DNA of 64,000 nucleotides from an uncultured Gammaproteobacteria bacterium (GTDB taxonomy: Bacteria > Patescibacteriota > Patescibacteriia > UBA1558 > GWA2-36-10). The stretch covers positions 17,362-81,361 of the forward strand of contig CAZXZY010000001.1 of the NCBI GenBank assembly GCA_964645825.1, given 5' to 3'. Both the position numbers and the translations under genes were made by a program. Of this stretch, positions 20,683 through 35,470 are shown piece after piece. Each line of letters opens with the position of its first letter. The stretch's first letter is position 1. The notes under the pieces were generated by a model, which was not told the DNA's origin, made no database searches, and saw nothing but the letters and a program-made list of their open reading frames with translations.

Positions 20683-22380
20683 TTAAAATTTAACAACTTC
20701 TCCTGGCCCCAAAATATTTTTATCATCTTTTTTTTCTTCTTGTTTTGGGACATCTTTTTTAAACTCTGGCTTTACTTTAAGCGCTTCGGCTAAGGAAATA
20801 AACTCCTCTTTGTTATCTTCTTTTTTCTCTTCTGATTGACTAACTTTTTTGATACTAGAAGGAGAAGGAATTTTACCTTGCTTAGATAATTCTAAACACT
20901 TTTTACAATACACTGGTTTATTAGGATCTGGAATAAAGTTTATCTCTGTATGTGTGCCACAAAATGAGCAATCAACTTCTGCTAAAGGTTTCTTGATTCT
21001 AGTTTTTTTGTTAACTGGTTTTTTTTCAGAATTGCTACTTTGAGCTGTGACTGGGTATATTTTTTTAGCCGGTTTCTCTTCTGTTGCCGCTTCTTCGTGT
21101 TTATTTTCACTCCAACGAGTAATTCTCTCTTCAATTTCATGTCTAGGACTAGCATATCTTTCGCGAGAAACAGCGATCACTTTATCTTTAATTTCTGGAT
21201 TAACATAGCCTATATCTATTGGTGGTAAAGTAATAGCTGAAAATCCTTGTGAAGCTACACCATCGATCATTAATTTGAGATAAGTTTCATATTTAGTTAA
21301 ATTAACTAAATCGTATTGAGTAAAAGTAGGAAAAAATTCTTTTTCCAAAAATTCAGCATCAGTAGCACCAACTCTAAAAGTAACTATAGTGCCAACATTG
21401 CCAAAAACGGCAGCCGTAACCATTTCATCAACTTGTTCAATATATTGGTGAGCCAAAATTAAATTAAGACGATACTTACGCGCCTCGGATAAAATACCAG
21501 CAAATGATTCAGTGGCAAAATTTTGAAACTCATCAACATATAAATAAAAATCTTTACGTTCATTTTCTGGAATATTTACTCGACTCATAGCGGCTAATTG
21601 AATCTTGGTGATCATCATAGCACCTAATAAGGCCGAGTTATCTTCACCTACCCTACCTTTAGCCAAATTCATCAATAAGATTTTTTGATTATCCATGATT
21701 TCACGCATAGTAAAAGAAGATTTAGGTTGGCCCAAAATATTTCTAATCAAAGCAGAAGATAAGAATCGACCAACCTTATTTTGAATCGGTGCGATGGCTT
21801 CTGATTGAAATTTGTCCGGATACTTTGAGTATTCATCAACCCAAAAAGATTTGACTACTGGATCAGTAACTTGGTCAATTACTTTTTTTCTAAAAGGCTT
21901 ATCAACTAACATTCGCATGATGCCTAATAATGTAGAACCTGGATACTCTAATAAGGCAGAAATAGTATGATGTAAAACATATTCTAAACGAGGCCCCCAA
22001 GAGTCAGCCCAGATTTTTTTAAACACTCCAATCAAACCAGAAACTACCAAATGTCTTTCTGCTTCATTGACGTTTTCCAAAACATTAAAGGCTATGGGAA
22101 AATCCAAATCAGCTGGGTTAACATAAACCACATCATTAATACGATCAGCTGGAATATACTCAATAACTTTTTCTACTAAATCTCCATGTGGATCAATCAC
22201 GCAAACACCCTTGCCAGCCTGAATGTCCTGAATAATCATATTTTCCAAAACTGTCGATTTGCCCATGCCAGTTTTTCCAATAAAATACATATGGCGACGG
22301 CGGTCGTCAGTCTTGATACCAAACTTTGTTTGGGAATTACGAAAGTTTGTCTTAGCAAAAAAAGTTATATTTTGACTCAT
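20683..22380 (-). CDS. FtsK/HerA-superfamily P-loop ATPase (HerA/TraG-like) with Lys/Glu-rich tail and C-terminal zinc ribbon; split form
   Basis: Walker A GKTGMGKST, VIDPHGDL box, Walker B YLYVDEFQNF, ARKYRLNLILAHQ. CSFCG...CKKC near the C-terminus. Confidence 0.6.
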   Translation of the reverse strand: MSQNITFFAKTNFRNSQTKFGIKTDDRRRHMYFIGKTGMGKSTVLENMIIQDIQAGKGVCVIDPHGDLVEKVIEYIPADRINDVVYVNPADLDFPIAFNVLENVNEAERHLVVSGLIGVFKKIWADSWGPRLEYVLHHTISALLEYPGSTLLGIMRMLVDKPFRKKVIDQVTDPVVKSFWVDEYSKYPDKFQSEAIAPIQNKVGRFLSSALIRNILGQPKSSFTMREIMDNQKILLMNLAKGRVGEDNSALLGAMMITKIQLAAMSRVNIPENERKDFYLYVDEFQNFATESFAGILSEARKYRLNLILAHQYIEQVDEMVTAAVFGNVGTIVTFRVGATDAEFLEKEFFPTFTQYDLVNLTKYETYLKLMIDGVASQGFSAITLPPIDIGYVNPEIKDKVIAVSRERYASPRHEIEERITRWSENKHEEAATEEKPAKKIYPVTAQSSNSEKKPVNKKTRIKKPLAEVDCSFCGTHTEINFIPDPNKPVYCKKCLELSKQGKIPSPSSIKKVSQSEEKKEDNKEEFISLAEALKVKPEFKKDVPKQEEKKDDKNILGPGEVVKF

Positions 22381-22386
22381 ATATTA

Positions 22387-23916
22387 TTATATTGGTAGAT
22401 TAGTTGGCGGCCCTCCTTTTGTGCCCGAGGCATTGATAACATCGCTCTTTGGTAGTTTTACTGTTTCTACGTCTTCTTTTCTTTCAGTTTTGTCTTTAGC
22501 AAATCTATCTTCAAAGTAATCATTATCTAGATCTACTGTAAATTCAGGTTGTTTGTTTAGTTGTACTTTAAGATTCTCTGACTCAGATTCATCCAAATCA
22601 CTGATACCAAGAGAAGCTGGTAAACTTGAAGGTGCTTGAGATTTTTTGGTTTCTGTTCTTTTTAATAGTGGTGTTCGTATTTCCATACCAGGAAAATGCC
22701 ATAAAGTAGCTAGTTCTTCAGTGTTTAAAATAAAACTACTATGCCCAGCTGCACCACTACGGCCTTTGTATGCTTTAACTAATGCAGATTTACGTTTTTT
22801 TGCTCGATATTTAGTAAACCAATAATTAACTGAGGTTTTGGTTCTTGGATCAGGATAAAAACCATTTAAATTCAAGTCAGCAAACTGCTTAACGGCACCA
22901 AAGACTGACGAGACCGCTCTATTTGGTGAATAGTCTTCTAGGGGCGCAAGGTATATTAATCTAATTTTACACTCAAAACCCATCTTGGAAGCCTTATTCT
23001 GGATTGCTTCAATGCTATCTTTTTCACCTGGAGTCAAATGAAGCATCATGCTAGGCAGCTCATCTTTTTCATTGCTCTCTTTCCATAAAGGAAAAATAAA
23101 CTCGCCTATTTTATCCATGCTATTGGTAATCCAGTCAACTACTTCATTGGGTTTACTGGTTTTTTCTTTAATTTTTTTTCCAGCCAATTTTAAGGCCATG
23201 TTTTGAGATTCCTGAACCCATTCAAAACCAGTTGGCTTTACTAGAATTTGAAACCAAATTTGCTCACCAACATGAATTTTACTCATCGTTTCCAGTATCG
23301 CAGCCAAAGGATCTTTGTATTCACCACTAACCTTATCTTCAAAAGCAGGATAAGTTTTGATTGGAAAAGCTTGATGGGACACCGGAATTATTTCACTGCC
23401 CCATATATTGTATGTATCGTCTGGATAATCTTCTGGCGCCCAATCAACATAATCATCGACTTCAGTTATTTCTGCATCTGGATATTGTGAGTAAATAGAG
23501 CTTTCTACCACATCTCGATATTGAGATGGTGTACGGATCAAAAATTGAACATATCCATCAATACTGACAATTTCAAAAGAAAAAGACAACTGAAAAATAC
23601 CAGCCCAATAGTCATCTACTTTACTCAAAGGTGCATGAGCACCAGAAATAGTAGAAAATAATTGTTCTACTGCTTTTGGAGTTTGTTCATGCTCTTTGGG
23701 TATGTCAACAGCTAATAAAATAAACTTGTTGCTGGCAAACCATTTATTTTGTTTATTAAATAGCCACAACCAATATCCCTGAACAATAAAAAGAATAACA
23801 AATAAAACCCAGCCGCCATGACTAAAAAGATACCAGATAGCATAGGCTGGTCCTTGATCGGCTGCGGCAAAAAGTGGCGCGAAGTCGATAACGAAATTTA
23901 TTATTTCTATCTGCAT
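22387..23916 (-). CDS. membrane-anchored partner of the split ATPase (homologous to the N-terminal half of the fused 820-aa paralog)
   Basis: N-terminal TM (WVLFVILFIVQGYWLWLF). Conserved IKTYPAFEDK segment shared with the fused paralog. Ends GGPPTNLPI, matching the fused protein's SPPANIPT junction. Confidence 0.5.
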   Translation of the reverse strand: MQIEIINFVIDFAPLFAAADQGPAYAIWYLFSHGGWVLFVILFIVQGYWLWLFNKQNKWFASNKFILLAVDIPKEHEQTPKAVEQLFSTISGAHAPLSKVDDYWAGIFQLSFSFEIVSIDGYVQFLIRTPSQYRDVVESSIYSQYPDAEITEVDDYVDWAPEDYPDDTYNIWGSEIIPVSHQAFPIKTYPAFEDKVSGEYKDPLAAILETMSKIHVGEQIWFQILVKPTGFEWVQESQNMALKLAGKKIKEKTSKPNEVVDWITNSMDKIGEFIFPLWKESNEKDELPSMMLHLTPGEKDSIEAIQNKASKMGFECKIRLIYLAPLEDYSPNRAVSSVFGAVKQFADLNLNGFYPDPRTKTSVNYWFTKYRAKKRKSALVKAYKGRSGAAGHSSFILNTEELATLWHFPGMEIRTPLLKRTETKKSQAPSSLPASLGISDLDESESENLKVQLNKQPEFTVDLDNDYFEDRFAKDKTERKEDVETVKLPKSDVINASGTKGGPPTNLPI

Positions 23917-24056: not shown

Positions 24057-25160
24057 TTAAGCTTCTTTTAGTAAATATCTACCTTTTTCATCTCTAGCAA
24101 AACGATCTTTATTCATTAAGGCTAGGGCAATAGTGGTTTCTTTAATCAACCTCTTGTCTAGAACGGCAGCAATAATTTCTTTTTTGCTCATTGGGCGGCC
24201 AATTTCATTTAAAATTTCAGCAATTACATCAGCAACTACACCAGGTTTATAACCCCATTCTTTTAGGGCATAAATACCACGGCCCACTAAAACATATTTT
24301 TTATCTAAGATTAATTCATTGTGAATGGTAGCTGGATAAGCTTTACGTTGATCAAATTCCATCTTATTGATAGTTTCTGCGATCTCAGTAAAATGCAATG
24401 GCTTACTTTCTTTACGCAAGACAATATAGATTTTGTCATTCATGCGTTTTGGAGTGATACTTGGCCATTCGGCTAAACCCCACTCTTCGTAAGGATTATT
24501 TTCAATCTTTTTGGTAATGTCCAAAAAGTTAACTACCATTTTATCATTTAAATCATCATTGCTAGAAAAAAAGTTGGCTTGAGTGATTTTTTTGATCAAG
24601 TCTTCTAAAATAACTGTATCTTTATGCTCATGAATCAATTGACGAATGTCATCAATAACCTTATCAAAAAAGTCGATAGAAGCTTCTGGTGTTTTCCAAA
24701 AACTATAAACTTTTTTACTTTCTTTTACAAAATGAAAACGATGATTTAAGAGTTGGTTCAAGACAAAGTTAATAGCAGCTTTATTTTCAGCTGTTGCTCC
24801 AGGCACAACTAACAATTCTTTAATCAAGTTTTCTTCCGACATCATGCCACCATGCTCATTTAAGATAGCATTGGCAATATCTTCAATCTGTTTCAAGAAG
24901 TTTTGATCAAAGTTTTTGATAATTTTCTTTAGTGCACTGTTTTCAATTTGACGTACTCTTTCACGAGTAATACTGTATTGACGGCCAATTTCTTCTAGTG
25001 TTTTTTTCTTAAAGCCGGCCAATCCATGTCGCATCTTCAAAATCTCTTGCTCACGTTCAGATAATACCTCCAAAATACGCTCAACAGTTTGAGCGGGATT
25101 GAACTCTGACAAATGAGAGAGTTGTTGTGCAGTCATAACTTGGTCTAAAATAGAACCCAT
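24057..25160 (-). CDS. sigma-70 region-4 domain protein with winged-helix-like C-terminus (not a complete sigma factor)
   Basis: Residues 25-85, LSEREQEILKMRHGL...TLEEIGRQYSITRERVRQIENSALKKI, match region 4.1/4.2. There is no region 2 or 3. The C-terminal GRGIYALKEWGY...KKEIIAAVL resembles HARE-HTH. The gene is monocistronic, with its own promoter and terminator. Confidence 0.6.
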   Translation of the reverse strand: MGSILDQVMTAQQLSHLSEFNPAQTVERILEVLSEREQEILKMRHGLAGFKKKTLEEIGRQYSITRERVRQIENSALKKIIKNFDQNFLKQIEDIANAILNEHGGMMSEENLIKELLVVPGATAENKAAINFVLNQLLNHRFHFVKESKKVYSFWKTPEASIDFFDKVIDDIRQLIHEHKDTVILEDLIKKITQANFFSSNDDLNDKMVVNFLDITKKIENNPYEEWGLAEWPSITPKRMNDKIYIVLRKESKPLHFTEIAETINKMEFDQRKAYPATIHNELILDKKYVLVGRGIYALKEWGYKPGVVADVIAEILNEIGRPMSKKEIIAAVLDKRLIKETTIALALMNKDRFARDEKGRYLLKEA

Positions 25161-27910: not shown

Positions 27911-28702
27911 TTATTTTTTAGCTAAAAATTGAATGGCGCTACCAAGACCTGGAAATATCTTAGCTAAAGTACGATGCTCTAATTTCAAATATGCTTTATA
28001 TATCTTTAAAAATCCCCTAGCCTCTGTCCGCGGCAAGTAATCGTAAGTATAAAATTGTTCTATTTTGAATCCTGTTTTTATTAAAGCTTGCTTCATTTGA
28101 CTTGGCAGAAAAACTTCGGCATCAGGCTCAATCATTTCTGGTGGCACAGTTTTTTGTGCTTTAAAAATATTTAAAACTCTAGTAATTAGTCTGACTAAAA
28201 TCCATAAATAAAAAAATGGATTAAACCATCTATGATAATTTGCATTAGGCTCACCCAAAATTATAAACTTGCCTTCCGGTTTTAAAACTCTGTATATTTC
28301 TTGAAAAGTTTTGTTCATAGCAAAAAAGTGATGCAACGAACCATTAATAACTACTAAATCAAAAAAATTATCTTGATAAGGCAAATTCACAACTTCACCT
28401 AAAGTAAAATTGACTTGCGGATATTTTTGCTTAGCAATATTTAAAACTTCTTCAGATAAATCAATACCATAAACTTCTTCAGATACTTGCAATAAACTAT
28501 TTGTCAGTCTTCCTGTGCCACAGGCTACATCTAAAGATTTGTTTACTTTATTATTTTTTAGAAATTTTTTAAGATTAACAAAATTCCAAGCATCAACTAT
28601 TTTAGCAGACTCGGTTTCTGTATGCCAAGCATCGTATTTAGCAGCTGTAGCATTATAATAATCTCGCTGAACTTGCTTTTTTTGTTGATAATTATCTTGC
28701 AT
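27911..28702 (-). CDS. class I SAM-dependent methyltransferase
   Basis: Motif I LDVACGTGRLT, motif II DLVVINGSLHH, post-I acidic residue. Confidence 0.75.
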   Translation of the reverse strand: MQDNYQQKKQVQRDYYNATAAKYDAWHTETESAKIVDAWNFVNLKKFLKNNKVNKSLDVACGTGRLTNSLLQVSEEVYGIDLSEEVLNIAKQKYPQVNFTLGEVVNLPYQDNFFDLVVINGSLHHFFAMNKTFQEIYRVLKPEGKFIILGEPNANYHRWFNPFFYLWILVRLITRVLNIFKAQKTVPPEMIEPDAEVFLPSQMKQALIKTGFKIEQFYTYDYLPRTEARGFLKIYKAYLKLEHRTLAKIFPGLGSAIQFLAKK

Positions 28703-28736
28703 AACAGCGAAATTATCTCATTTCTTAGGCTTTGTG

Positions 28737-28772
28737 TCAAAAAGAAAAGCCGCGATCGTGCATACGATCGCG
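28737..28772 (-). terminator. GC-rich intrinsic terminator of the small acidic ORF
   Basis: ccgcgatcg-tgcata-cgatcgcgg, then U-run on the minus strand. Confidence 0.5.
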
Positions 28773-28788
28773 GACTTCAAGTCTTTGA

Positions 28789-29043
28789 TTAGACATGTGC
28801 CTGTTGACAGAGCTCATCTATCTCAGCATCCAAAACTGTCCATTCAGCTGCTGTTAGATGAACGGTGTCATCGATGTCTTCTACGGCTTCTGGCCCCTGC
28901 TCTTTCATGTTAGATGCGCCAAGTTTGCATAATCTCTCCCAGAATGCAATTCTGGCCGCATCATCTGGACTGACATTGATCAGTCTCTGCATTGCGTGCT
29001 CCATGAATTTGCTTACAGTACCTCCTACCATGTTTCTGTCCAT
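28789..29043 (-). CDS. hypothetical acidic 84-aa protein, compositionally atypical (about 47% GC)
   Basis: Intact ORF with its own terminator. GC content is far above the roughly 31% background. No recognised motif. Confidence 0.4.
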   Translation of the reverse strand: MDRNMVGGTVSKFMEHAMQRLINVSPDDAARIAFWERLCKLGASNMKEQGPEAVEDIDDTVHLTAAEWTVLDAEIDELCQQAHV

Positions 29044-29096
29044 TTTCTCGCCCTTTCGTTTTAGTGTGTCAAGAACTAAGATTTTTAATATTTACC

Positions 29097-29162
29097 ATCT
29101 TCTCTATGTTTTGTCAATCATAACTAAATTTAATTGATTGACTAAGTAAAGTAAATATTTTA
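29097..29162. promoter_or_regulatory. divergent promoter pair: TTGACT-17-TATAAT for tRNA-Gln on the plus strand, and TTGACA-17-TAAATA on the minus strand for the small ORF
   Basis: The two -35 boxes form the inverted repeat tgtcaatca-N16-tgattgaca. The plus-strand -10 TATAAT lies 8 nt before the tRNA 5' end. Confidence 0.45.
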
Positions 29163-29176
29163 TAATATTTTCACGT

Positions 29177-29250
29177 TCGGGGATCGTCTAATGGTAGGAC
29201 GACTGGTTCTGGTCCAGTTAATCGGGGTTCGACTCCCTGTCCCCGAGCCA
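29177..29250 (+). tRNA. tRNA-Gln (anticodon CUG), CCA encoded
   Basis: Manual cloverleaf: acceptor TCGGGGA/TCCCCGA, D-arm GTCT-AATGGTA-GGAC, anticodon arm ACTGG-TTCTGGT-CCAGT, T-arm CGGGG-TTCGACT-CCCTG, discriminator G, CCA. Confidence 0.8.
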
Positions 29251-29332
29251 AACGAACGAAGTGAGTGCAGGCTCGGGATTATAGATCCGAGTCGAAAACG
29301 AGGCTCCTAAGATGCTGTGCAATAGCGCAGCG

Positions 29333-29345
29333 CCCCGAGCCAAAC
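29333..29345 (+). repeat. 13-nt direct repeat of the tRNA-Gln 3' end (ccccgagccaaac), 92 bp downstream of the first copy at 29241-29253
   Basis: Exact 13-mer duplication. The intervening 79 bp contains two short hairpins. Confidence 0.6.
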
Positions 29346-29383
29346 AAAAAATCGCCTAACTGGCGACTTTTTTATTTTATATT

Positions 29384-29853: not shown

Positions 29854-31347
29854 TTACAAAACTTCTCCACCAAAAGTATCAACTGCATCCCCCACCTCTT
29901 CTTCTTGACTACCTTTGAATTTTTGTTGATTAGTTTTAAAATCTTCGTCTATTTTTAGCACTGTTTTGATTGAACGGCCTAAAATATTAGTTAAATTTTT
30001 ATTTATTTCTTCAGCTACACCTGGCTTATCTAATTGCTCAATATGAAATGGATATTCAAGGCCTACGGTAATAACTTCTGTTTGAATATCTAATGGATGA
30101 GCACTTTGAATGATGCCGGCCAGAGAAGAGTTCAATGGCTTCAAGGCGCTTACTAATTCAGTCCATTGTTTTTGTAAACTAACATAGTCTTTATTATCTA
30201 TAGCTAGAGTTTGAGCTGTTGTAGTGACAGTTGGCTCTGGACTAGCAATGTCAGCTGTAGCTAATAAAAATTCAATGCAAGCTAATTCTAATGGCAATTG
30301 ATCGATTACAACAGCTTGTTGGCTTTGAACTTTAGCTAATAGTATATTTAATAAACGGGAAATATCAGCTAAAGGAAAATTAGAGGCATGTTTTTTGATC
30401 ATTTCTACGAAATGTTCATCAAATTCTAGCTGAAAATCAGCTCCAATAACCTGATAAAGCATAATTTGACGAGTATATTCGATCAAATCCGAAGTCAAAC
30501 TATCTATATCTACACCTTCAGCTACTAATTTATTGATTTGATTTAATACAGCTGGCAGATTGTGCATCCGTAAGCCCTCAACTAAAGCGTCTATTTCTTG
30601 CCAATTATTACGTGGCAAAACTAGAGAAATCAAATCATCAGTCACTTGACCATGAGACAAAGCAATGATCTGTCCCAAAAGTGATTCAGCATCACGCAAA
30701 CATCCTTCTGAGCGACGAGCGATTTGAGTCAAAACTTTATCATCGATAGTTATTTTTTCCCATTCTATAATCTCACTTAACCTCTTTACTACATCAGCTA
30801 AAGGGATTTTTTTGAAATCAAAACGCTGACAACGAGAAATGATTGTTTCTGGTACTTTATGAATTTCAGTTGTAGCTAAAATAAATATCACTCGCTTTGG
30901 TGGCTCTTCAAGAGTTTTGAGTAGAGCATTAAAAGCGGATTTGGAAAGCATGTGGACTTCATCGATCACAAAAACTTTATAGCCGTTTTTGTTGAAAGGT
31001 GGAACTTGAGCATTGGCAATAATATTTTCTCTAACATTGTCCACTCCAGTATGCGAAGCGGCGTCAATTTCGATCACATCCAAAGTTTGATTATGCAAAA
31101 AGTTTTCACAAGCCTGGCAAACATTACATGGCTCACTAGAATCATCCTTACGATCAAGACAATTTAATGAGCGTGCAAAAAGACGGGCCAAGGTAGTCTT
31201 GCCCGTTCCTCTGGGACCTACAAATAAGTAAGCGTGAGCGATTTGCCCAGAAGTGATCTCACTCTGCAAAGTAACTTTAATTGGCCGTTGGCCAACTACT
31301 TCTTTGAAGAGCTTCGGTCGATATTTTCGGTAAATGACTTCAGACAT
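29854..31347 (-). CDS. dnaX: DNA polymerase III subunit gamma/tau
   Basis: YRPKLFKEVVGQ, Walker A GPRGTGKTT, zinc module CNVCQAC, SRC motif. Confidence 0.9.
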   Translation of the reverse strand: MSEVIYRKYRPKLFKEVVGQRPIKVTLQSEITSGQIAHAYLFVGPRGTGKTTLARLFARSLNCLDRKDDSSEPCNVCQACENFLHNQTLDVIEIDAASHTGVDNVRENIIANAQVPPFNKNGYKVFVIDEVHMLSKSAFNALLKTLEEPPKRVIFILATTEIHKVPETIISRCQRFDFKKIPLADVVKRLSEIIEWEKITIDDKVLTQIARRSEGCLRDAESLLGQIIALSHGQVTDDLISLVLPRNNWQEIDALVEGLRMHNLPAVLNQINKLVAEGVDIDSLTSDLIEYTRQIMLYQVIGADFQLEFDEHFVEMIKKHASNFPLADISRLLNILLAKVQSQQAVVIDQLPLELACIEFLLATADIASPEPTVTTTAQTLAIDNKDYVSLQKQWTELVSALKPLNSSLAGIIQSAHPLDIQTEVITVGLEYPFHIEQLDKPGVAEEINKNLTNILGRSIKTVLKIDEDFKTNQQKFKGSQEEEVGDAVDTFGGEVL

Positions 31348-31959: not shown

Positions 31960-31994
31960 TTTTATTTTTGTGTTTATATTTTTCTATTCTAACA

Positions 31995-32030
31995 ATAACA
32001 TAAAAACGTCCATATTTCAATAGACGTTTT
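31995..32030 (-). terminator. intrinsic terminator after the fused ATPase gene
   Basis: aaaacgtc-N12-gacgtttt plus U-run. Confidence 0.5.
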
Positions 32031-32049: not shown

Positions 32050-34512
32050 TTAGACAATAATTCGCTTATTAATTTCGGCTTCTATTTGTTCTTTGGCGCG
32101 TCCATATTTCAACGCTGAAAGCTCTTTAATGGCTGCCGCTAACTCAAAATGACCTTTTTCTGCCATGATGGGGTTAAAATTAAAAGCTGGCGGAGCAGCG
32201 TTGTCTATCAATAATCTGGTATAACAAGTATATTTTGGCATATTAATAAGATCATATTCCGATACTATCGGTGCCATTTGTTTAGCAATAGTTTCTGCAT
32301 CTTCAACACCAATCCGGAAAGAAACAATTGTGCCGACATTGCCAAAGATAGCATCACGTACCCTGGTATCACCATTCTTGACTAGCTGTGCAATAAATTG
32401 ATGAGCCAAAATTAAATCAAGTCGATACTTACGTGCTTCAGATAAAATGACTGAGATACTCTCTGTAATAAAATTTTGGAACTCATCTATATAAAGATAG
32501 AAATCGCTTCTTTTATCTTCTTCTAAATTGACTCGGCTCATAGCGGCAAATAATAATTTACCGATAATAATCATGCCAAGTAAATTACTGTTCATTTCGC
32601 CTATCTTGCCTTTAGATAAATTTACTAAAATAATTTTATTACTGTCCATTGCTTCTCTAAAATTAAAAGCAGATTTAGCCTGAGCAATAATTGGTCTAAT
32701 CAAATCGTTAGATATAAATGGAGTTAGCTTACTAGTGATATAAGGAACCATATTAGCTAAAGAAGCTTCACCTCCTGCTTTTTGAGCCTCCTTTTCCCAA
32801 AATTCTTTGACAAATCTATTTTTAACAGTAGCTAATTTTGTTTTTCTAAATTCGGCATCGGCTAACACCCGAGGAATCTCTACTAAAGTGGCACCACTAA
32901 GCTTATCATCCATCACCAACAACATCGCATTACGCATATACTGCTCAAACATTGGGCCACCAGTAGCTTTTAGATCATAAAGTTTATCAAAAATGGCAAT
33001 CATTTCATTGATCACAAAAGTTTTTTGCTCTTCTGTATCATATTCGAGCATATTCATACCCAAAGGTCGCTCAGAATTAGCTGGGTCAAATAAAATCACG
33101 TCTTCTGCTCTCTCTTTTGGCACATGAGTTAAGGCAGTTTCAATCAAGTCACCATGTGGATCAACCACACAAACGCCCTTACCCGCTTTAATATCTTGGA
33201 TAATCAAACTTTCTTGAAAAACAGACTTACCAGTACCAGTTTGCCCAATAATATACATGTGTCTTCTTCTGTCCGCTGCCTTCATACGAATCAGGCTTTC
33301 TTTACCACGATAAGTATTTTTACCTAAAATTAAACCATCAGTCGGAATATTAGCTGGTGGAGAAGCTTTAACAGCGTCTAACCAATCAATATTTGGTGTA
33401 GAGGTAGTGGTTAATGGCAAATGAATAACACTAACCATCTCTTCGGCGTTCAAAATTAGACGGTCTACAGCCGAAAATTGTCGATAAATAAAATTTTGAA
33501 TTATTTGATCATTTTTCTTATAAGTTACAGCTTTGAAGCTATTGCCAAATTCATAAATATTATACTGGGTATAACTATTCAAAATATCTTGCAAAGCAGC
33601 TTCGGCTTTTGCCTCCTCTTTACTAGCTACTACTATACGAATATTTACATCAAGCCCTGGTTTAGAAGTTTTTTCTTCTATCATTTTACTAGCCTGCTGT
33701 TCCATAGCTGACATTTGATGTTGCTCTCCTCTATTTTGCATTACATTTTCCGCTGGACCTTTTTTATCGGTACTGATAATCTTCAATATAAATTCTATTA
33801 GCTTCCCTAAAATTTTTATCAAACCTGTGCCATGAACTTTATCGATGGCTGATTGAAAAGTCATACCATCATTAACATTTTTAATAATCTTCCTGGCTCG
33901 AGCATGCCACTTTTTAGGAGCAGAACGAAAAATATACTGCACTGCAGCTGCTTCATCTTCAGCTAATTTACTTAAAATATTAGTAATACTTTCTAGTGGA
34001 TCATTAGAAAAACTAGGGTATGTTTTTATAGGTAATGCAACATCGTTAGCAAAAATCAAATTACCAGCTTTAATAAAACTATTTGATTTGAAAATGTTAT
34101 AATCCTCTACATCTTCAAAATAAACCTTTGGATAAACAGCCTGTATTTGTTGAATAAAAAATTCTCTAAATTTATGAGGTACAGCTGCATAAAATTGGAT
34201 CATGCCTTTTTGGACAACTATTTCCAAAGAAAATGTATCCTCTCGTATTTTCATGCCCTTATCTGCCTTGAGTGCTGCTAAAGAAGTGAATAAGTGTTCA
34301 ATTTGTCCTAAGGTTTGAGTAATATAGTCTTGGCTTAATTCCTCTTTTTCGCCTTTAGTATACTTAGGAATTTTTATCAATAATATATCTAATTTAAGAT
34401 TTTTATTTACTTTTTTATTAAATTTTTTCAATACAAAAATAATAGACGTCGCAGCTATAGCTAGCGCTAACACAATGGCAATTAAAGTTGTCCAAGTGAT
34501 TTGAATTTCCAT
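32050..34512 (-). CDS. fused membrane-anchor + FtsK/HerA-superfamily ATPase (820 aa); paralog of the split pair at 20683-23916
   Basis: N-terminal TM, LPIKTYPSFSNDP segment, Walker A GQTGTGKS, VVDPHGDL, Walker B YLYIDEFQNF, ARKYRLDLILAHQ. About 60% identity to the split ATPase around the P-loop. Confidence 0.6.
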   Translation of the reverse strand: MEIQITWTTLIAIVLALAIAATSIIFVLKKFNKKVNKNLKLDILLIKIPKYTKGEKEELSQDYITQTLGQIEHLFTSLAALKADKGMKIREDTFSLEIVVQKGMIQFYAAVPHKFREFFIQQIQAVYPKVYFEDVEDYNIFKSNSFIKAGNLIFANDVALPIKTYPSFSNDPLESITNILSKLAEDEAAAVQYIFRSAPKKWHARARKIIKNVNDGMTFQSAIDKVHGTGLIKILGKLIEFILKIISTDKKGPAENVMQNRGEQHQMSAMEQQASKMIEEKTSKPGLDVNIRIVVASKEEAKAEAALQDILNSYTQYNIYEFGNSFKAVTYKKNDQIIQNFIYRQFSAVDRLILNAEEMVSVIHLPLTTTSTPNIDWLDAVKASPPANIPTDGLILGKNTYRGKESLIRMKAADRRRHMYIIGQTGTGKSVFQESLIIQDIKAGKGVCVVDPHGDLIETALTHVPKERAEDVILFDPANSERPLGMNMLEYDTEEQKTFVINEMIAIFDKLYDLKATGGPMFEQYMRNAMLLVMDDKLSGATLVEIPRVLADAEFRKTKLATVKNRFVKEFWEKEAQKAGGEASLANMVPYITSKLTPFISNDLIRPIIAQAKSAFNFREAMDSNKIILVNLSKGKIGEMNSNLLGMIIIGKLLFAAMSRVNLEEDKRSDFYLYIDEFQNFITESISVILSEARKYRLDLILAHQFIAQLVKNGDTRVRDAIFGNVGTIVSFRIGVEDAETIAKQMAPIVSEYDLINMPKYTCYTRLLIDNAAPPAFNFNPIMAEKGHFELAAAIKELSALKYGRAKEQIEAEINKRIIV

Positions 34513-34515
34513 GAA

Positions 34516-34986
34516 TTATTTATTGTATAAACGTAAAATTTCGTCAGCTTTTATTTTGGCTTCTTGTTCTAAAAAATGTTGATTGACTTGTGGGATTATC
34601 TTTAACCAACTAACAATCAAATCTATAATTTTTTGTAATTTTGCTTTACCAGAACTTAATAAATTGTTAACTTCTTTGGCTGTTTGCTCTCCTTTTTGCT
34701 TAAAGGTGACCTGAGTGGCTGCGTCCATAGACAAAAACATACTTTCTAGACCCTGAGAAAGAATACTTTCTACTTTTTTAAGCTCTATTTCAGAACTAGG
34801 CTGAGTAAGTGGAGCTTGAGGAGTTGACGGTAAAACAAAATCACTAGGTAATTGAGTTTTTTGTTCAGTCACAGCTGTTTCTGATTTTTTCTCTGTGACT
34901 TGTTCGGGATTAACTTCAGCTTGCTCTAGAATACTAGAAGCTTCCTGATTTACAATAGGTTGTTCAACATTTTTTATTTCAGACAT
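34516..34986 (-). CDS. hypothetical acidic protein, co-operonic with the fused ATPase
   Basis: 4-nt gap to the downstream gene; Glu/Gln-rich N-terminus; no motif. Confidence 0.4.
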   Translation of the reverse strand: MSEIKNVEQPIVNQEASSILEQAEVNPEQVTEKKSETAVTEQKTQLPSDFVLPSTPQAPLTQPSSEIELKKVESILSQGLESMFLSMDAATQVTFKQKGEQTAKEVNNLLSSGKAKLQKIIDLIVSWLKIIPQVNQHFLEQEAKIKADEILRLYNK

Positions 34987-34993
34987 GGATATA

Positions 34994-35470
34994 TTATACC
35001 AAATTTTGCTTCCTGATGCGAATTAATTTTTTATAAATTAGATCTCGATCTTTTATGTTAGTAAGATAAAATTTTCTTTTTTTGCTTTGCAAGCAAATAC
35101 TGTACAGGCCTTTTCTAGTAATTTTATTTATTTTAGATAATTTTATTTCCCCAACATGCTGATAATCTGCTTTATTTTTTAATTTGAGATGAATTAAACG
35201 TTGATTAGTTAATAAATAACAATCAGCTTGTTTCAAAAGATTTTGAACAACTACAACAATCAAAATTATAATCAAGGTCAGCCACAGGCCGAAGCCTTGT
35301 CGACCTCTAATGCTCATGGGATAAAGCATAAAAAAAGCCATCGGAAAACCGATGAACATTAAAACATAAAAAAACAAATTTTTGCTACGTAATTTAATCA
35401 CTAAACGTAGCTCTTCATTAAATTGTAAAAATTTGTTAAAATTACTCATAGTATGAAAAGAAAGACTCAA
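34994..35470 (-). CDS. membrane protein with bacterial PH-like (YdbS/YdbT-type) domain
   Basis: Two TM helices followed by the pattern LLTNQRLIHLK...GLYSICLQSKKRKFYLTNIKD. Confidence 0.4.
   Translation of the reverse strand: MSLSFHTMSNFNKFLQFNEELRLVIKLRSKNLFFYVLMFIGFPMAFFMLYPMSIRGRQGFGLWLTLIIILIVVVVQNLLKQADCYLLTNQRLIHLKLKNKADYQHVGEIKLSKINKITRKGLYSICLQSKKRKFYLTNIKDRDLIYKKLIRIRKQNLV

Follow-up and report, generated by a model that had tools for sequence, protein, structure and literature searches.

What would an adenosine triphosphatase (ATPase) resembling those of type IV secretion systems (T4SSs) do on a patescibacterial chromosome, among housekeeping genes, and why is it present there in two forms, once as a single polypeptide and once as a pair of proteins? 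This question is raised by a 64,000-nucleotide (nt) stretch of contig CAZXZY010000001.1 (assembly GCA_964645825.1, forward-strand positions 17,362 to 81,361), which is placed by GTDB in the Patescibacteriota and is referred to here as the window; positions are counted from its first letter. The window has 34% GC, and its open reading frames (ORFs) of at least 100 amino acids (aa) lie nearly all on the minus strand. An initial annotation, made from the sequence alone, had singled out a gene for an 820-aa ATPase, described as a fusion of the products of two other genes of the window and as part of a three-gene operon with an acidic protein and a PH-domain membrane protein. The 820-aa protein is most likely a membrane-anchored P-loop ATPase of the VirB4/VirD4 branch of the FtsK-HerA superfamily. 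Its preferred but tentative interpretation is that of a coupling-type ATPase, most probably for a patescibacterial T4SS or pilus apparatus encoded elsewhere. An identical protein is held at NCBI as MBT7553152.1, 'type IV secretory system conjugative DNA transfer family protein', and the naming of the window ATPases there also includes 'type IV secretion system DNA-binding domain-containing protein'. The gene and its parts, including a single transmembrane (TM) helix, are as follows:

32050..34512, minus strand: ORF of the 820-aa fused ATPase, with TM helix, DUF8128 and VirD4/TrwB-like P-loop motor
34414..34494, minus strand: N-terminal TM helix, residues 7-33, followed by a Lys-rich stretch (hydropathy and AlphaFold2 (AF2) helix)
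33418..34392, minus strand: DUF8128 (PF26449) domain, residues ~41-365, homologous to the 509-aa protein of the split paralogue
33343..33360, minus strand: junction motif PPANIP, residues 385-390, the cut point of the split paralogue
32158..33333, minus strand: P-loop motor, residues 394-785, with Walker A GQTGTGKS at 423-430 and an all-alpha insertion at ~494-600

The motor is assigned by several lines of comparison. In Pfam, TrwB_AAD_bind, T4SS-DNA_transf, DUF87 and TraG-D_C all exceed the gathering thresholds set for them, with 42.6 bits for PF10412 (threshold 20.5), 35.8 for PF02534 (20.1) and 30.1 for PF12696 (22), and no matches to CagE_TrbE_VirB, AAA_10 or P-loop_TraG were returned. A comparison by hhalign with the proteins of R388 (reference sequence NC_028464) aligns the motor with TrwB from Walker A via the all-alpha domain to Walker B (probability 95%, E 3.8e-8), versus a probability of 8% for TrwK/VirB4, and a family-profile search of the PDB returned TrwB (E 4e-5) and DotL. 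Besides Walker A, the motor carries Walker B (FYLYIDEF, 671-678), SEARKY (691-696) and AHQ (703-705), and none of these four motifs (Walker B taken as YIDEF) varies in 56 orthologues. The AF2 model of the ATPase (predicted local distance difference test (pLDDT) 85, predicted template modelling score (pTM) 0.74) shows the helical insertion at ~494-600. By hydropathy and in the AF2 model, residues 7-33 are the sole TM-like window of the protein; since this single helix is N-terminal, everything downstream, that is the DUF8128-motor body, would be cytoplasmic.

The region between the membrane helix and the motor is the less familiar half. All 240 listed homologues carry PF26449 as a precomputed assignment, and one of them is 98% identical to the 820-aa protein, while direct Pfam scans (to E 10) returned no PF26449, the model being probably missing from that Pfam copy. 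Searches with the DUF8128 sequence against the PDB gave nothing significant, a match to ribosomal protein bS6 (E 0.05) being treated as chance, and hhalign of DUF8128 against TrwK likewise gave nothing (probability 0.8%). A literature search found no paper on DUF8128. In a fold comparison no P-loop protein is present in the top 60 matches, so the likeness is to the N-terminal domain of VirB4 and not to its ATPase. An independent Foldseek comparison agrees, its top 12 matches all being TrwK chains (E 1e-4 to 3e-3, at template modelling scores of only ~0.3). Judged by these comparisons of predicted folds, DUF8128 looks like a VirB4 N-terminal domain, which is the part of VirB4 that docks onto membrane partners; the AF2 model of the stand-alone DUF8128 paralogue has a pLDDT of 82 and a pTM of 0.74. 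The 820-aa protein has the domain plan of a VirB3/VirB4-like fusion, with a motor that is VirD4-like by sequence.

A second copy of this ATPase is encoded in two pieces in the same window, preceded by a gene for a DNA-binding type of protein:

24057..25160, minus strand: 367-aa protein with Sigma70_r4 and double HARE-HTH (Pfam), directly upstream of the split pair
22387..23916, minus strand: first part of the split paralogue, a stand-alone DUF8128 protein of 509 aa that is anchored in the membrane and whose acidic tail is disordered and ends in PPTNLP
20683..22380, minus strand: second part of the split paralogue, a soluble VirD4-like ATPase of 565 aa that carries a treble-clef zinc finger (CxxC-x17-CxxC) at the C-terminus, together with a charged tail

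The proposal that the 820-aa protein is the one-piece equivalent of this pair holds for both halves. By BLASTP, residues 13-390 align with the 509-aa protein (23% identity, E 2e-20) and residues 396-816 with the 565-aa protein (44% identity, E 9e-118). The relatedness of the N-terminal halves, on which the proposal depended, is further seen in a profile-profile comparison of the fused and split N-domain families (probability 100%, E 8e-41, 356 columns). The split ATPase has no TM helix and carries the same Walker A, Walker B, SEARKY and AHQ motifs. Its zinc ribbon (PF23477; CSFC 471-474, CKKC 492-495) occurs in the 565-aa protein only, and the fused protein has two scattered Cys and no zinc ribbon, in agreement with the annotated absence of this tail. 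The junction had been mapped exactly to the split point, and here the outcome is mixed. The motif (P/A)PxN(L/M/I)P does mark the boundary, as its distance to Walker A is exactly 38 residues in 116-118 of 120 fused homologues and it lies among the last 20 residues in 119 of 120 stand-alone homologues. However, the 509-aa protein, which ends 7 nt before the start of the split ATPase gene, has the motif twice, as an internal KKSQAPSSLP (424-433) and a C-terminal PPTNLP (503-508), and the fused junction aligns with the internal copy, not with the terminal one. The segment with both copies comprises residues 424-508 (window 22393-22645); the copies are separated by a disordered, low-confidence acidic linker of ~70 aa, and both are conserved in 83 orthologues of the stand-alone DUF8128 protein.

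The ATPase domains are 63-83% identical among fused and 64-88% among split orthologues, versus 40-46% between the groups; for the N-domains the corresponding values are 37-56%, 38-69% and 20-26%. By these sequence identities, the fused and split copies are two separate orthologous groups that have diverged and are separately conserved, as the initial annotation had suspected, and the difference between the values within and between groups indicates that the duplication predates the divergence of these lineages. More than 6,800 homologues of the fused form were found, with matches in at least 581 species-representative genomes. Lengths among the best 120 homologues are ~806-875 aa, bar a few entries that are shorter and apparently truncated; PF26449 is present in every one, and domains of type IV coupling proteins (T4CPs) in nearly all. 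Their hosts are Komeili-, Nomura-, Falkow-, Uhr-, Magasanik- and Kerfeldbacteria and other Parcubacteria. The stand-alone DUF8128 protein, with a length of ~500 aa, has 1,713 homologues, many of them on contigs that also hold a fused orthologue. The coexistence of both states had been presented as a natural experiment of one genome, a description that does not survive this co-occurrence on the same contigs in many Patescibacteria.

A census of T4SS genes in this phylum has counted 5,713 VirD4-like genes in 2,918 of 3,035 Patescibacteria genomes, ~2 per genome, and the available parts of that study call their role unassigned, 'possibly exapted' (Quinonero-Coronel et al., 2025; PMC12102498). These VirD4 homologues are almost certainly the same gene set as the one described here, and two old orthologous groups fit the published number of ~2 per genome. 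In the accessible sections of the census the VirD4-like genes are treated as one class, with fused and split forms not separated, and no account is given there of DUF8128, a VirB4-like fold or partner genes (PMC12102498).

Outside the phylum, the family is found on mobile elements. The 820-aa protein matches phrog_5156 over its full length (E 2.7e-88), and hidden Markov models (HMMs) of its N- and C-terminal halves match, in the same order, four proteins: gp156 of phage G, a protein of an SPO1-like phage, a 913-aa protein of a Bacillus subtilis plasmid and an 800-aa protein of Clostridium botulinum pCLJ (E 5e-29 to 8e-13 for the N-domain and 7e-46 to 1e-26 for the C-domain; tblastn coverage 80-93%). 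Plasmid homologues amount to 550 records, including 327 from Bacillus, 67 from Streptomyces, 32 from Clostridium and 12 from Sulfolobus. On the B. subtilis plasmid NZ_OX419568 (locus L090, 6111-15743) a replication-relaxation gene comes next after the homologue, and beyond it are TcpC, TcpE and an AAA_10 VirB4. The homologue has the place of the coupling protein in a Tcp/ICEBs1-type conjugation module; MOB-suite classes the plasmid as non-mobilizable. On pCLJ (L091, 8480-11280) a 133-aa TrbC/VirB2-pilin-like gene, with a match below the Pfam threshold, overlaps the start of the homologue. In Bacillus phage SPO1L1 (L007, 3779-9304) the next gene is a Replic_Relax (PF13814) gene, with an Alp7A-like actin 1 kb upstream, and in Bacillus phage G (L008, 3249-7391) gp155, upstream of gp156, is a second VirB4-like (TraG P-loop/AAA_10) ATPase. 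The pLS20 relaxase family was considered as a possible replication-relaxation family and dropped, as the paper does not say so. The Firmicutes plasmid and phage DUF8128-ATPases, including the SPO1-like gp68, differ from the patescibacterial proteins, to which they are 20-30% identical, in having no N-terminal TM helix and in their mobile-element setting, the Patescibacteria copies being chromosomal. No functional characterisation of these plasmid and phage proteins was found in the searchable literature.

These relatives bear on the direction of change. The outgroups, on plasmids of Bacillus and Clostridium, in phage G and in SPO1-like phages, are fused without exception, and parsimony therefore indicates that the one-piece form is probably ancestral and the split pair a derived fission, with an added tether and zinc finger. 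The direction stated in the initial annotation, in which the 820-aa protein arose by fusion of the split genes, is thus probably to be reversed. The TM helix was either gained in Patescibacteria or lost in the plasmid and phage relatives.

The genes around the fused ATPase were compared across 80 species loci from GTDB genomes and three from assemblies, 79 of which could be evaluated for the 156-aa protein ('acid156') and the 201-aa protein ('p201'). In the window the locus comprises, in addition to the ATPase gene:

34994..35470, minus strand: ORF of the 158-aa PH-like protein, TTG start, with an alternative ATG at 35449
34516..34986, minus strand: ORF of the 156-aa protein (acid156), 3 nt upstream of the ATPase start
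31993..32030, minus strand: terminator-like hairpin with a U-rich tail, between the ATPase gene and the 201-aa gene; 11-bp stem, 6-nt loop
31354..31959, minus strand: p201, a conserved hypothetical protein of 201 aa, in synteny with dnaX and the fused ATPase
29854..31347, minus strand: dnaX (DNA polymerase III tau/gamma), the conserved downstream neighbour, with its Pfam families in orthologous loci

The annotated three-gene operon is confirmed in its tight spacing (7 nt between the 158-aa and 156-aa genes, 3 nt between the 156-aa and 820-aa genes) and in one of its two partners. A homologue of acid156 is directly upstream of the ATPase in 68 of 79 loci, most commonly with a 4-nt overlap, whereas only 11 of 74 have a PH-like gene upstream; these are close relatives, and they are also the loci with lepA in that place. 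The related locus L003 has no PH gene and retains acid156, ATPase, p201 and dnaX. In a similar manner, the hairpin thought to close the unit is real, with a perfect 11-bp stem at 32003-32030 that contains only three G-C pairs (-16.9 kcal/mol, z = -4.07 versus shuffles), but conservation continues beyond it: p201 comes directly after the ATPase in 70 of 79 loci, and in 66 of 71 a dnaX gene is reached within 2 kb downstream. The module that is conserved consists of acid156, ATPase, p201 and dnaX, and the PH-like gene is lineage-specific and not needed by the model proposed below. At the split copy, the order secD, secF, Sigma70_r4/HARE-HTH protein (~370 aa), DUF8128 protein and ATPase with zinc finger is found in eight of eight split loci. 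No acid156 or PH-like homologue is beside the split copy in these eight loci, the window included, which answers in the negative the question of whether the two genes also accompany split-type copies. The Sigma70_r4/HARE-HTH protein is a candidate DNA-binding partner or regulator of the split paralogue.

The small proteins give few clues by homology. Acid156, held at NCBI as MBT7553153.1 (hypothetical protein), belongs to a family of 1,655 clusters at 50% identity, the best 150 listed all measuring 142-207 aa, and has no Pfam, NCBIfam or PDB match. Its description as acidic is correct but mild: the overall isoelectric point (pI) is 5.04 and that of the low-complexity N-half 4.3, whereas the conserved, probably helical C-half (W..IP.VN..FLEQEAKIK) is basic (pI 9.0). 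Neither a paralogue of acid156 elsewhere in the window nor a similarity to the tails of the split proteins was found. The name 'predicted RNA-binding protein Jag' given to it by JGI looks spurious, with no Jag_N, KH or R3H match even at E 10. The 158-aa protein is basic (pI 10.4), and its two TM windows (residues 31-54 and 56-86) agree with the annotation of a YdbS-like PH-domain membrane protein; the PH domain itself is less secure, as the match to bPH_3 (E 0.003, 18.4 bits) is below the cut-off of 23 bits. Weak bPH_3 matches occur in 6 of 13 family members (best E 6e-4), and no PDB sequence match was found for the 158-aa protein. With 51-76% identity to its orthologues versus 53-71% for the ATPase, p201 is at least as conserved as the latter; it has at least 8,000 homologues, none of them annotated, and no Pfam, NCBIfam or PHROG match. 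It displays an N-terminal coiled coil, two beta-rich segments and a C-terminal tip of ELEIDL, DLEINL or DFELSL, which is taken here to resemble the hexapeptide beta-clamp-binding motif QLxLxL. The Sigma70_r4/HARE-HTH protein, p201, acid156 and the PH-like protein were also compared with replication-relaxation proteins, and no similarity was found.

Further observations concern the surroundings of the fused copy. Eight loci, Falkowbacteria-like and related, have no acid156, and in six of them (L046, L060, L065, L066, L067, L074) an unrelated protein of ~90 aa with one TM segment, an amphipathic helix and a Lys-rich tail is encoded directly upstream, ~300 nt from the fused ATPase; it may be an alternative partner. 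Within the end of the PH-like gene, a promoter-like site on the minus strand (34993-35022) consists of TTCGCA, an 18-nt spacer and a TG-extended TATAAT. There are 6 nt between the end of its -10 element and the ATG of the 156-aa gene, so that a transcript started from it would be leaderless. The site may be due to chance, being one consensus match in AT-rich sequence (22 such sites were found versus 17.9 expected). In the related locus L002 (10987-11750) two T4SS_pilin (PF18895) genes are located just after dnaX, ~2.5 kb downstream of the ATPase; no T4SS_pilin equivalent was found in the window, where a 146-aa multi-TM protein and a tRNA gene occupy that position. A tRNA-Gln(CTG) gene (29177-29250) is on the plus strand amid essentially all-minus-strand protein genes, and the region beside it (28700-29380) contains no convincing ORF.

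If the 820-aa protein is a coupling-type ATPase, it would form a hexameric ring under the membrane, with the VirB4-like domains and TM helices as a membrane-proximal docking layer, and the motor would use ATP to recruit and push DNA or a nucleoprotein or protein substrate. The translationally coupled 156-aa protein may be an adaptor or regulator bound to the motor, by analogy with CagZ-Cagbeta, TraM-TraD and the DotL adaptors; small partners of this kind recur among T4CPs. In the split copy, the zinc-finger tail could fill the adaptor role in cis, resulting in two substrate specificities, and the tether with its PPxNLP tip would keep the soluble motor attached to the DUF8128 partner in the membrane. 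This coupling role is favoured because of the ancestry of the motor, the fold of the docking domain and the situation in S. epibionticum, whose T4SS cluster has no recognisable coupling protein of its own (PMC10633639). Several observations nevertheless weigh against it. A VirD4-like homologue of S. epibionticum is reported as non-essential although the T4SS is essential, and only 148 of the 5,713 VirD4-like genes are near virB4, according to the available parts of the census (PMC12102498). The neighbours are housekeeping genes, dnaX and lepA for the fused copy and secDF for the split copy, and a Pfam scan of 21 window genes (both ATPase loci, their immediate neighbours and ten of the largest ORFs, with the remaining ORFs of at least 100 aa unscanned) returned chromosomal housekeeping functions (secA, alaS, pilB, a penicillin-binding protein, recJ, lepA, dnaX, secDF) and no T4SS, pilin or relaxase genes. 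Additionally, the NCBIfam T4CP models (TraD, CD1115, TrbC, MobC) score far below their cut-offs, the best being TIGR03743 with 52.5 bits versus 366. T4CPs usually have two TM helices leading into the nucleotide-binding domain, unlike the single helix of the 820-aa protein with 320 aa of DUF8128 in between, and the plasmid and phage relatives have no TM helix.

Much of this would suit a T4SS-independent housekeeping DNA translocase of exapted VirD4 ancestry (FtsK/SpoIIIE-like, Ced-like or uptake-related), a membrane ring that pumps or holds chromosomal or incoming DNA and is tied to replication; such a role is a possible, though somewhat unlikely, alternative. The order ATPase-p201-dnaX is kept in ~90% of 79 loci, but where genomes are small and seldom rearranged, synteny by itself is a weak argument. 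VirD4-like genes, rarely near virB4, are found in 2,918 genomes compared with 2,417 for VirB4, and exaptation is raised by the authors themselves in the accessible text, where the homologue is non-essential while the T4SS is essential (PMC12102498); this prevalence gap can come from the incompleteness of metagenome-assembled genomes, in which two T4CP-like copies are set against one VirB4, and the non-essentiality can reflect redundancy between paralogues. Weak matches to the archaeal DNA-import ATPase CedD, the zinc finger of the split copy and the Sigma70_r4/HARE-HTH DNA-binding protein that always precedes it speak for a translocase, as does the lack of T4SS genes among the scanned window genes, whereas the closest relatives outside the candidate phyla radiation are in conjugation modules and the gamma domain of FtsK is absent. 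The domain plan also invites the reading of a VirB4-type assembly ATPase, a divergent VirB3/VirB4-like fusion that would power pilus or channel biogenesis. The N-domain fold matches TrwK/VirB4, the pilin-like gene of pCLJ overlaps its homologue as in virB2-virB3-virB4 operons and one related genome has the two T4SS_pilin genes downstream of dnaX. This reading is improbable, however, given the preference of the motor for TrwB over VirB4 and the missing VirB4-type Pfam matches, the B. subtilis plasmid on which the relative coexists with a separate AAA_10 VirB4, the subthreshold score of the pCLJ pilin and a bona fide VirB4 clade that, in the available parts of the census, Patescibacteria already own (PMC12102498). 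Very improbable is a self-contained system in which the PH-like protein, acid156 and the ATPase are obligate partners and the hairpin closes the unit: the spacers are short and all three genes are kept in the closest relatives, but the counts of the PH-like gene (11 of 74, versus 68 and 70 of 79 for acid156 and p201) and its absence from L003 contradict it, and with the promoter-like -10 element inside the PH gene, near its end, acid156 and the ATPase could be transcribed on their own. Finally, the full-length phrog_5156 match and the homologues in Bacillus phages and Firmicutes plasmids could point to a remnant of an integrated conjugative element or prophage, which is effectively refuted by the conserved chromosomal synteny: the same housekeeping neighbourhood recurs across at least 79 species, GC is flat (0.31-0.375), no integrase, relaxase or repeats were seen, the only nearby tRNA gene is not adjacent and identity to the phage and plasmid proteins is low (20-30%).

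A broader hypothesis departs from the coupling-type reading and is considered unlikely. Here, the DUF8128-ATPases would be a third T4SS-type motor lineage that combines a VirB4-type docking domain with a VirD4-type motor, is mobile-borne in Firmicutes, where it would be paired with replication-relaxation proteins, and was domesticated early in Patescibacteria as two T4SS-independent, replication-linked DNA translocases, universal chromosomal paralogues of which one was later split. This would fit the p201-dnaX neighbourhood of the fused copy as well as the sigma4/HARE-HTH protein and zinc finger of the split copy, and, if true, would give the phylum a DNA-handling machine without counterpart in model bacteria.

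A large part of bacterial diversity is accounted for by the Patescibacteria. They live attached to other cells, a lifestyle for which the T4SS is essential. The locus itself is an ordinary member of a catalogued, functionally uncharacterised protein family. What is added to the published count, as far as its available text goes (PMC12102498), is the division into fused and fission paralogues, the VirB4-like DUF8128 and the fixed partner genes. The ~5,700 'VirD4-like' genes are thereby resolved into two ancient paralogues, each with its own fixed partner genes, and DUF8128, the previously unannotated half, can be read from its modelled fold as a VirB4-type docking domain. The combination links the VirB4 and VirD4 architectures and bears on how the two ATPases of T4SSs diverged; it also suggests a likely role for an uncharacterised family of Firmicutes plasmids and SPO1-like and jumbo phages.

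Among known systems, the DNA translocases FtsK and SpoIIIE differ from the 820-aa protein, which has no gamma domain and whose FtsK Pfam match is below threshold; literature searches on FtsK in Patescibacteria yielded no decisive result. With the T4CPs (VirD4, TrwB of R388, TraD, DotL, Cagbeta) it shares the all-alpha insertion, Walker A and B, an (A/G)RK motif and an N-terminal membrane anchor; unlike them, it has no relaxase or T4SS genes nearby among the scanned genes, and it is present as two paralogues in nearly every Patescibacteria genome. Around either paralogue, in the window and the related loci, no virB2/virB3/virB6/virB8-type genes were found except for the T4SS_pilin genes of L002. 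Compared with VirB4, it has no sequence-level match to VirB4 families and is not in a virB operon, and the accessible part of the census describes a separate, true VirB4 clade in Patescibacteria with a TrsD-like partner, mostly beside virB4 (PMC12102498). TrsD is, in the same text, a remote homologue of the VirB4 N-terminus (PMC12102498). The two-domain plan is nevertheless the same in VirB4 (TrwK of R388), with an N-terminal docking domain followed by a P-loop motor, and VirB4 is also known both fused with a TM segment (VirB3-VirB4) and split in two (TrsD and TrsE of the pGO1-type Gram-positive T4SS).

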